Source of the DNA: Ktedonobacterales bacterium
Lineage (GTDB): Bacteria; Chloroflexota; Ktedonobacteria; Ktedonobacterales; JADMIN01
Direction of reading: 5' to 3'
DNA length: 32,000 nucleotides
Assembly: GCA_030167145.1 (NCBI GenBank)
Contig: CP126532.1
Location: forward strand, 2,490,001 to 2,522,000
The position numbers were made by a program, and so were the translations under genes. The notes beneath the pieces were generated by a model. It was given only the letters and a program-made list of their open reading frames with translations. It made no database searches and was not told the DNA's origin. Numbering within the stretch: the first letter of the stretch is position 1; the number at the start of each line of letters is the position of its first letter. Positions 12,725-13,150 of the stretch are shown piece after piece.

Positions 12725-12753
12725 TTGCGGATTGGCGCGCGGTGGCGTAGACT
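12725..12753 (+). promoter_or_regulatory. Candidate sigma-70-type promoter for the tRNA-like RNA unit
   Basis: TTGCGG (12725-12730), a 17-nt spacer, then TAGACT (12748-12753). The predicted start is near 12760. This is a motif match only. Confidence 0.3.
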
Positions 12754-12794
12754 GAGAGGCGGAGTGCCAGATTCAGATTGAAGCTCTTCGTCAT

Positions 12795-12890
12795 GGCGCA
12801 GAGATAGCGCAATCAGTGGAGGTTCGAGTCCTCCCCCCACCATCCAGGCATCGCTCGCGGTGGGGTAGCCCAAGTGGCAGAGGCAGCGCC
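12795..12890 (+). ncRNA. Permuted tRNA-like module A (class II, tRNA-Tyr-like arms; 3' half precedes 5' half; no anticodon loop)
   Basis: Read 5'->3':
- GGCGC (12795-99)
- 18-nt variable arm
- T arm GGAGG/TTCGAGT/CCTCC (12818-34)
- acceptor 3' strand CCCCACC (12835-41), then A
- 16-nt linker
- acceptor 5' strand GGTGGGG (12859-65, 7/7 WC)
- TA
- D arm GCC/CAAGTGGCAGA/GGC, then A
- GCGCC (12886-90), a perfect complement of 12795-99. Confidence 0.5.
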
Positions 12891-12972
12891 GAGCGCCCCA
12901 CCAGCATCAGACTATCACTCCAGGCTGAGCATTCGCCGCCGAACGCCGCATCGAGCGCCGGAGGTCAATCGT

Positions 12973-13046
12973 CGCCGAGGTTGCGGGTTCAGATCCCGCT
13001 CGGCCCCCCAAGCATGGGCCGGTAGCTCAATTGGTAGAGCGCGGCG
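12973..13046 (+). ncRNA. Permuted tRNA-like module B (class I geometry; encoded CCA; no anticodon loop)
   Basis: Read 5'->3':
- CGCCG (12973-77)
- AGGTT
- T arm GCGGG/TTCAGAT/CCCGC (12983-99)
- TCGGCCC (13000-06), then C, then CCA (13008-10)
- AGCAT linker
- GGGCCGG (13016-22; 6 WC + 1 G-T)
- TA
- D arm GCTC/AATTGGTA/GAGC (13025-40), then G
- CGGCG (13042-46), a perfect complement of 12973-77

Conserved tertiary positions U8, A14, G18G19, A21 and T54T55C56 are present. Position 58 is G rather than A. Confidence 0.55.
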
Positions 13047-13105
13047 ATATAACCGTGAACCCAGGCTTAAACGTGGCGGTGTGCCCAATGGGCGGCACAG
13101 CGGGG

Positions 13106-13150
13106 TCCAGGGGAGGGCATTTCCCCTGGACTCCATTCTCTTCCTTTCCC
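13106..13150 (+). terminator. Hairpin terminator candidate closing the tRNA-like RNA unit
   Basis: TCCAGGGGA (13106-14), a 7-nt loop, then TCCCCTGGA (13122-30) form a 9-bp perfect stem. The pyrimidine/T-rich tract CTCCATTCTCTTCCTTTCCC follows on the + strand. The site lies between the RNA unit and the convergent lipoprotein gene. Confidence 0.5.

Follow-up and report, generated by a model that had tools for sequence, protein, structure and literature searches.

We analysed a stretch of 32,000 nucleotides (nt), hereafter the window, from a Ktedonobacterales bacterium (Chloroflexota), in which two candidate circularly permuted tRNA-like sequences, modules A and B, follow a gene of the protein family DUF7873. 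The region upstream of the modules encodes, on the plus strand, a helix-turn-helix (HTH) protein, a type IIG restriction-modification (RM)-like enzyme and the DUF7873 protein. A longer open reading frame (ORF) at 11294-12391 is in the wrong frame; the real DUF7873 gene is the one listed in Table 1. Both permuted tRNA look-alikes are real, and they form the core of a structured RNA of about 380 nt. In the 5' to 3' direction this RNA consists of helix P1, a region of 5' repeats, module A, a linker, helices P2, P3, P4 and P5, module B, and the hairpin P6. A reading of the same DNA made earlier from its letters (the sequence-only reading) had described the two modules and had overlooked that they are parts of one larger conserved RNA with the further helices P1-P6.

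Module B reads exactly as it had been described arm by arm, and when folded alone it has the permuted cloverleaf as its minimum-free-energy structure. The minimum-free-energy fold of module A is a permuted cloverleaf as well. For this module, then placed at 12795-12890, the topology proposed earlier is upheld by fold and covariation. However, the class II geometry with an 18-nt variable arm is not, as the family favours a short AAUCAGU loop. Nor does the identity of the module A acceptor with that of tRNA-Tyr appear meaningful, since the sequence of this stem varies across the family and covaries freely. In all relatives the closing stems (P5 and the stem of module A) run on into the conserved helices P4 and P1, which leaves both modules without an anticodon loop. 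The suggestion of a split tRNA, in the sense of a decoding tRNA, had to be dropped for that reason.

Table 1. Coordinates of the DUF7873 gene and of the elements of the downstream RNA, numbered from the first letter of the window
Feature	Positions	Strand	Pairing, sequence or evidence
DUF7873 gene, 244 aa	11577-12311	+	Pfam PF25283, E 9.7e-120, full length
Candidate promoter of the RNA	12725-12753	+	-35 TTGCGG 12725-30, 17-nt spacer, -10 TAGACT 12748-53
Whole structured RNA, ~380 nt	12760-13140	+	predicted start to end of 3' hairpin; nhmmer profile, covariation
P1, 5' strand GGAGTG	12761-12766	+	pairs with CACTCC 12916-12921; encloses 5' domain and module A
5' domain	12767-12794	+	3-4 repeated YUGA/CUNA-type motifs ~7 nt apart; alignment A3 columns 21-51
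Module A, permuted tRNA-like domain	12795-12897	+	fold; helices 2-4; closing stem in all 54 relatives
Module A, closing stem (two parts)	12795-12897	+	outer GGCGC 12795-99 with GCGCC 12893-97; inner GCGC 12807-10 with 12886-89
Module A, T arm	12818-12834	+	12818-22 with 12830-34
Module A, acceptor	12835-12865	+	12835-41 with 12859-65; closing loop 17 nt, 12842-58
Module A, D arm	12868-12884	+	12868-70 with 12882-84
P1, 3' strand CACTCC	12916-12921	+	helix 1
P2 and P3, 5' strands, GAA internal loop	12935-12949	+	P2 12935-40 with 13091-96; P3 12944-49 with 13076-81; contains GCCGAACG 12938-45
P4, 5' strand	12957-12965	+	pairs with ~13059-13066
Module B, permuted tRNA-like domain	12973-13046	+	minimum-free-energy fold; YrlA model match; helices 8-11 of the comparative structure
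Module B, closing stem P5	12973-13046	+	CGCCG/CGGCG, 12973-77 with 13042-46
Module B, variable loop		+	5 nt, AGGTT
Module B, T arm	12983-12999	+	GCGGG-TTCAGAT-CCCGC, 12983-87 with 12995-99
Module B, acceptor	13000-13022	+	TCGGCCC/GGGCCGG, 7 bp, one G-U; 13000-06 with 13016-22
Module B, acceptor closing segment	13007-13015	+	C-CCA-AGCAT (AGCAT, linker), then U8-A9
Module B, D arm	13025-13040	+	GCTC-AATTGGTA-GAGC, 13025-28 with 13037-40
P4, P3 and P2, 3' strands	13059-13096	+	P4 ~13059-66, P3 13076-81, P2 13091-96; conserved loop segments TTAAACGT and TGCCCAATG
P6, 13-bp 3' hairpin	13102-13134	+	conserved loop motif, then T-rich tail; called by terminator scan

The structure was assessed in an alignment of 54 relatives (A3), which contains 73 pairs in 12 helices. 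In the 12-helix structure 94.8% of the cells are paired, compared to 75.1% in shuffled and 40-48% in slid controls, and the covariation score is 0.604, compared to 0.22 and 0.09-0.14, respectively. Changes on both sides are observed for 63 of the 73 pairs, and none of 500 shuffles reaches any of the observed measures. The single-sequence folding energies are not significant against shuffled sequences (z from -0.5 to -1.7). Because they do not separate this region from shuffled sequence, the support for the structure is comparative only.

The helices of module A (helices 2-4) are paired in 97.9-100% of cases, and those of module B (helices 8-11) in 87-99.5%. All seven acceptor pairs are compensatory in both modules, and the closing stem of module A has a mean z of -2.1. 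The scaffold is supported to a similar extent. P2 and P3 (helices 5 and 6) are paired in 96.6% and 97.2%, with all pairs compensatory. P4 (helix 7) is paired in 87.5% with 9/9 compensatory pairs; it is imperfect in the window and has 9 bp in most relatives. P1 (helix 1) is paired in 86%, and five of its six pairs change on both sides; the window row of this helix is offset by one column in the MAFFT alignment. Finally, P6 (helix 12) is paired in 94.6%, and nine of the ten counted pairs are compensatory. The invariant columns are positions read as belonging to the elbow and core of tRNA, namely U8, A14, G18-G19, A21, G53, T54, C56, A58 and C61.

The YUGA/CUNA-type repeats of the 5' domain keep their positions across phyla. 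The covariation scan gave no pairing partner for this region, and several hand-built pairings were rejected, as they were contradictory between lineages. One possibility is that these are single-stranded repeats that bind a protein. In two further places, the P6 loop (13115-13121) and the 3' side of the P2/P3 internal loop (13082-13090), the loops are conserved and the flanking stems covary freely. These loops are candidate protein contact sites.

It could be argued that the modules are debris of rearranged or duplicated tRNA genes, for instance integration scars, or that a standard linear tRNA had been missed. Indeed, the Rfam tRNA model (RF00005) scores 22.6 bits at 12741-12842 (threshold 29), and ARAGORN reports odd "tRNAs" of 85-91 nt over the 5' domain and the T arm of module A in 4/60 relatives. 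However, the putative 5' acceptor strand of this linear tRNA candidate falls into the promoter spacer, and the complementarity of the upstream sequence to the 3' acceptor strand across the family is at the chance level (5.09 of 7 positions observed, 5.10 in shuffled sequences), and so the candidate was rejected. ARAGORN finds no tRNA or transfer-messenger RNA (tmRNA) in the window. The related loci retain permuted modules with compensatory changes, rather than intact tRNAs, and the RNA as a whole is conserved across phyla. This bears out the earlier opinion that the modules are not random debris, an explanation to which we assign hardly any probability. An identification as tmRNA, permuted or not, was rejected as well: ARAGORN is negative, there is no tag reading frame, and the tmRNA families of Rfam have no match in the window even at E up to 10.

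The partner of this RNA was sought in 80 fetched DUF7873 loci of at least seven phyla, namely from Chloroflexota, Actinomycetota, Cyanobacteria, Deinococcota, Armatimonadota, Acidobacteriota and Myxococcota, and from a contig labelled Oceanobacillus. The DNA directly 3' of the DUF7873 gene is conserved in nearly all these loci and contains two T-loop motifs about 150 nt apart. An nhmmer profile of the whole RNA (317 positions) finds it after DUF7873 in 75 of the 80 loci, with E-values down to 1e-85. Most members of the family are about 330-380 nt long and have two tRNA-like domains and the extra conserved helices. No other gene, from the window or elsewhere, is conserved beside the RNA in these loci, and a Pfam scan of 96 flanking ORFs revealed assorted housekeeping genes with no enrichment of TROVE, RtcB or vWA domains. 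The association with the HTH/RM block seen by the sequence-only reading does not hold, as of that block the 244-residue gene alone is conserved; the true partner, DUF7873, had been overlooked. Similarly, a link of the RNA to the type IIG RM, HTH, vWA-TIR or YhcG genes of the window was rejected, since none of them adjoins DUF7873 in any of the 80 loci. DUF7873 and the RNA are tightly and reciprocally linked, and the RNA is not linked to Ro60. In five Streptomyces loci (L059, L060, L066, L077, L080; positions ~6770-7090) a one-module variant was observed, with the 5' domain and module B and without the core of module A. In Dactylosporangium, the only bacterial lineage of the sample with a tRNA gene adjoining the unit, tRNA-Leu(tag) lies upstream of DUF7873 (L038, L046, L062, L063, L064; ~5500-5950), at a distance of about 50 nt in four of these loci and about 425 nt in L038.

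The RNA usually lies on the same strand as DUF7873 and starts about 40 nt past its stop codon, which would fit a cis-acting element in the 3' untranslated region, or an autoregulatory element, of the DUF7873 mRNA rather than a separate RNA. However, a candidate promoter separates the gene from the RNA. Low-GC relatives retain at conserved positions a TTGCxx box, a spacer of about 17-18 nt (judged by eye) and a TAnAnT box ending 7-8 nt before P1, although a simple consensus promoter scan does not call the site in the window. From the placement of the -35 and -10 boxes, transcription in the window is expected to start near 12760 (12759-12761). At the other end, P6 is followed by a T run in low-GC relatives and is likely a terminator. 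The unit running from a promoter to a terminator, as proposed earlier, is therefore supported at both ends. In addition, GC-rich hairpins resembling gene terminators precede the RNA in several Actinomycetota sequences. In locus L044 the RNA and the gene have opposite orientations, in L012 it is duplicated and displaced, and in the window it lies 450 nt from the gene. On sequence grounds, the conserved promoter, the inversion and this distance indicate that the RNA is independently transcribed, and the untranslated-region explanation appears very improbable. The ~410 nt separating the DUF7873 stop codon from the promoter in the window (12312-12724) have no counterpart in most relatives; the whole-window scan gave no Rfam match there at gathering thresholds, and 12600-12724 is blank at relaxed thresholds too.

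The DUF7873 protein of the window scores 399 bits against PF25283 (cut-off 27), with residues 1-242 of 244 covered, and is 100% identical to a protein of one Ktedonobacterales metagenome-assembled genome. Identity across the 80 loci is 75-86%, and clustering at 50% identity leaves 2,412 representatives of the family. The AlphaFold2 model (predicted local distance difference test 94.8, predicted template modelling score 0.72) has a mixed alpha/beta fold in which a long beta hairpin accompanies long helices. No significant relative was found in PDB or BFVD by sequence or fold, the top Foldseek match being Pur-alpha (E 0.17), and the protein matches no family in PHROGs, NCBIfam or PADLOC. A full-text literature search returned no paper naming DUF7873.

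Homologues of DUF7873 were found in 75 phage records, the hosts being Arthrobacter, Gordonia, Rhodococcus, Pseudanabaena, Microcoleus, Vibrio, Rhizobium, Klebsiella, Serratia and Ralstonia. In six phages that were inspected, including those of Arthrobacter, Gordonia, Klebsiella, Vibrio and Rhizobium, the gene is situated inside or beside an array of tRNA genes and is followed by an unannotated gap. The RNA profile matches this gap in Racecar (E 5e-50), Phendrix (1.5e-39) and Keelan (4e-19). Moreover, in four of the six loci the Rfam model of YrlA, a bacterial Y RNA, has full-length matches, below its gathering score, just downstream of DUF7873. Such sub-threshold matches follow even the homologues from the Klebsiella and Rhizobium phages, whose identity is only about 30%. 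Among viral contigs, all four strong RNA matches carry DUF7873 directly upstream. The D-arm A pattern was tried as a probe for viral contigs and rejected as unspecific, since only 7 of its 80 matches were the RNA.

The tRNA arrays of the Gordonia phages Mareelih and Phendrix are syntenic, with RecA followed by tRNA-Asn, tmRNA and tRNA genes. Mareelih has Ro and a single YrlA (52.1 bits) inside this array, whereas Phendrix has DUF7873 and the two-module RNA, and no Ro there. The tmRNA of Phendrix (L082, 4072-4600; Rfam 89 bits), annotated in Mareelih, is unannotated in its record. Two annotated phage tRNAs, tRNA-Sup-TTA in the Klebsiella phage vB_KpM_FBKp24 (L084, 6018-6155) and tRNA-Leu(gag) in Mareelih (L088, 5727-5866), overlap YrlA-model matches of 37.9 and 52.1 bits, respectively, and probably are miscalled tRNA mimics. 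The RNA described here explains such wrong calls, namely the one in FBKp24 and the odd ARAGORN predictions in Streptomyces and Nocardia loci.

YrlA RNAs are encoded near rsr, carry a 5' GNCGAAN0-1G motif and have one permuted tRNA-like domain (PMC4201824; 10.1101/312249). Published Y RNAs are 80 to ~220 nt long, and the conserved D and T stems of YrlA have been proposed as the site for an unknown factor (10.1101/312249). No Rfam family matches the RNA at the gathering score in the window or in 11 diverse relatives. When the thresholds are relaxed, the full length of the YrlA model (RF02553) aligns on module B (12962-13065), with 40.8 bits and E 1.4e-7 (gathering score 69), in agreement with the YrlA-like topology noted earlier; on module A the match is partial (19.2 bits). 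The gathering-score test is weak here, because the bona fide Ro-linked YrlA of Mareelih is below the threshold as well. In YrlA, too, the two strands of the closing stem flank, in this order, a variable loop, the T arm, a closed acceptor-like stem-loop, UA and the D arm. Both RNAs retain the tRNA elbow nucleotides, carry their core on a stem built from distant parts of the molecule and occur in phage tRNA arrays, and the 7-bp acceptor is that of the Mycobacterium smegmatis YrlA. On the other hand, the DUF7873-linked RNA is longer, has two tRNA-like domains, and includes the 5' repeats, P1-P4 and the 3' hairpin. It is linked to DUF7873 and is not found beside rsr. Neither TROVE/Ro60 nor RtcB domains were detected among the ORFs scanned in the 32-kb window, and the related loci likewise lack rsr and rtcB, which agrees with the earlier guess that this might be an orphan or belong to another class. 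Although related to YrlA, the RNA forms a distinct family, with no dependence on a neighbouring Ro60, and we do not file it as a member of YrlA.

These similarities suggest one main rival explanation, an ordinary Y RNA paralogous to YrlA and bound on P2/P3 by a Ro60 whose gene, rsr, resides elsewhere in the genome, DUF7873 being either an effector acting on the tRNA-like domains or an unrelated neighbour. Apart from the full-length alignment and the low score of the Mareelih YrlA, this is suggested by GCCGAACG, which fits the GNCGAAN0-1G motif on the 5' strand of a stem made of distant parts, where Ro binds Y RNAs. Besides, the phyla carrying the unit seem to overlap those known for Ro60. However, the homologous place fits the motif in only 14/54 relatives, despite the conservation of the stem, and the Ro-linked YrlAs match the RNA profile only in the core of module B. 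There is no TROVE gene within 6 kb at the sampled loci or in the 32-kb window. A tblastn search with the Ro-like proteins of Bxz1 and Mareelih found Ro in Mycobacterium, Streptomyces, Gordonia and Microbacterium phages, and none was detectable by it in DUF7873-carrying phages of Arthrobacter, Klebsiella, Serratia, Rhizobium, Pseudanabaena and Ralstonia. The syntenic Gordonia phages have one pair or the other, never both. With these observations the Ro60 explanation is weakened, and we regard it as unlikely, although it retains more weight than the other rivals.

The closed acceptors allow for another possibility, namely a precursor RNA. Cleavage by RNase P together with trimming on the 3' side would open both acceptors, CCA would be added or exposed, and the resulting tRNA-like molecule of several pieces would be charged or used by DUF7873, like a split tRNA or a two-piece tmRNA. 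Both acceptors have 7 bp and are stacked on 5-bp T stems in the relatives. A discriminator-like A follows the acceptor of module A in almost all 54 relatives, and NCCA follows the acceptor in 17/54 (module A) and 24/54 (module B). The closing loop can be as short as about 3 nt or as long as about 60 nt and has inserted hairpins, as would be expected of a discarded spacer. There is also a precedent, as in vivo RNase P cleaves the M. smegmatis YrlA, which has a 7-bp acceptor, and CCA is added to it (PMC4201824); the phage RNAs lie within arrays processed by RNase P. However, the encoded CCA claimed by the sequence-only reading, although present in module B of the window, is missing in most relatives. 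The acceptor sequence covaries freely, and so no synthetase identity is kept. Neither an anticodon loop nor a tag reading frame is present, ARAGORN recognises neither tRNA nor tmRNA, and in some relatives the loop that closes the acceptor has no more than about four bases. We consider a precursor of this kind improbable, somewhat more so than a Ro60-bound RNA. It is compatible with the explanation preferred below and does not exclude it.

That explanation, which we consider somewhat better than even, is a Ro-independent, Y-RNA-like ribonucleoprotein with a tRNA mimic, acting in tRNA-related biology; its function is deduced. The locus would be a two-gene unit consisting of DUF7873 and an independently promoted non-coding RNA of about 380 nt, in which two permuted tRNA-like domains are mounted on the long-range scaffold P1-P5. 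The particle would arise by binding of DUF7873 to those conserved parts of the RNA that lie outside the tRNA-like domains. The tRNA-shaped domains could engage proteins recognising the shape of tRNA, such as RNase P, the CCA-adding enzyme, modification enzymes or tRNA-targeting nucleases, and so the particle may take part in the surveillance of tRNA or RNA, or may serve as a decoy or sensor in conflicts of phages and hosts over tRNA. Phage tRNA arrays are thought to counter tRNA-targeting defences. Among the candidate factors RNase P is the most likely one, because the acceptors have 7 bp. By analogy with the M. smegmatis YrlA, the RNA may be cut at both of them, the pieces being held together by base pairing, and processing by RNase P with CCA addition is plausible.

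Several points weigh against the ribonucleoprotein explanation. The binding of DUF7873 to the RNA is suggested by gene linkage only, and the protein shows no recognisable RNA-binding domain and no structural relative in PDB or BFVD. Three Herpetosiphon loci (L008, L009, L011) and one other Chloroflexia locus (L001) keep DUF7873, about 81-86% identical, and no RNA was detected there within 6 kb by the nhmmer profile and a relaxed Rfam search; the locus L002 is too short to judge. The P2/P3 strand of the window fits the Ro-binding motif, so that a Ro60 encoded elsewhere might bind it. The rsr search in bacteria spans the 32-kb window and the locus flanks within 6 kb. The phage search was done with two actinophage proteins as queries, and a very divergent Ro could escape it.

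A bolder version, which we find possible but somewhat short of probable, is that DUF7873 takes the place of Ro60. The particle, spread by phages, would sense, decoy or repair damage to the tRNA pool in phage-host conflict, its two tRNA-shaped domains possibly being opened by RNase P. It would then represent a second, Ro-independent branch of Y-RNA-like particles, present in thousands of genomes.

Three other systems have features in common with this RNA. Circularly permuted tRNA genes are mentioned in 10.1101/312249 for red algae and one archaeon (Soma et al. 2007; Chan et al. 2011, as cited there). As in these genes, the 3' half comes first, a loop between the two acceptor strands closes the acceptor, and the outer sequences make up the side of the anticodon stem. 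However, permuted tRNA genes yield decoding precursors with an anticodon loop, processed via a circular intermediate by the splicing endonuclease and a ligase, whereas the DUF7873-linked RNA has no such loop in any relative and its closing stems extend into the scaffold helices. The tmRNA/SmpB system is likewise a tRNA-mimic RNA with a small dedicated protein. Permuted tmRNA exists, the phage arrays of Phendrix and Mareelih carry tmRNA, and the RNA of the Vibrio phage has a weak match to the permuted tmRNA model. Unlike tmRNA, the RNA considered here contains two tRNA-like domains, and its D arms are complete; it lacks a tag frame and a resume codon, and its acceptor identity is not conserved. 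Finally, phage T4 has, within its tRNA cluster, genes for two small stable RNAs of unknown function, C and D (species 1 and 2), which show tRNA-like features. Neither a dedicated protein partner nor a permuted order is known for these RNAs. Our literature searches retrieved no description of a permuted tRNA-like RNA of the kind linked to DUF7873.

The RNA constitutes a large structured family with strong covariation and at least 75 members in the 80-locus sample, absent from Rfam at curated thresholds, and it provides a handle on an unstudied protein. It also bears on the role of the tRNA-like domain in bacterial Y RNAs. The family shows that the use of a permuted tRNA mimic does not require a Ro60 gene next to it, that the mimic can be doubled, and that it can travel with a different, extremely conserved protein.

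The neighbourhood of the unit at 6410-18216 looks like a defence island. The HTH protein (HTH_23) and the type IIG RM-like enzyme (Type_ISP_C and N6_Mtase domains; PADLOC E 2.6e-93) occupy 6410-11249 on the plus strand. Genes for a vWA-TIR protein (16009-17055, minus strand) and a YhcG/DUF1016 PDDEXK nuclease (17101-18216, plus strand) were observed on the other side of the RNA. The GC skew is strongly negative (-0.43, -0.29) at 6001-8000, across the start of the HTH/RM block. In the Microcoleus locus L026, a HEARO RNA (11878-12100, 140 bits) is located about 5 kb downstream of the DUF7873-RNA unit and is probably unrelated to it.

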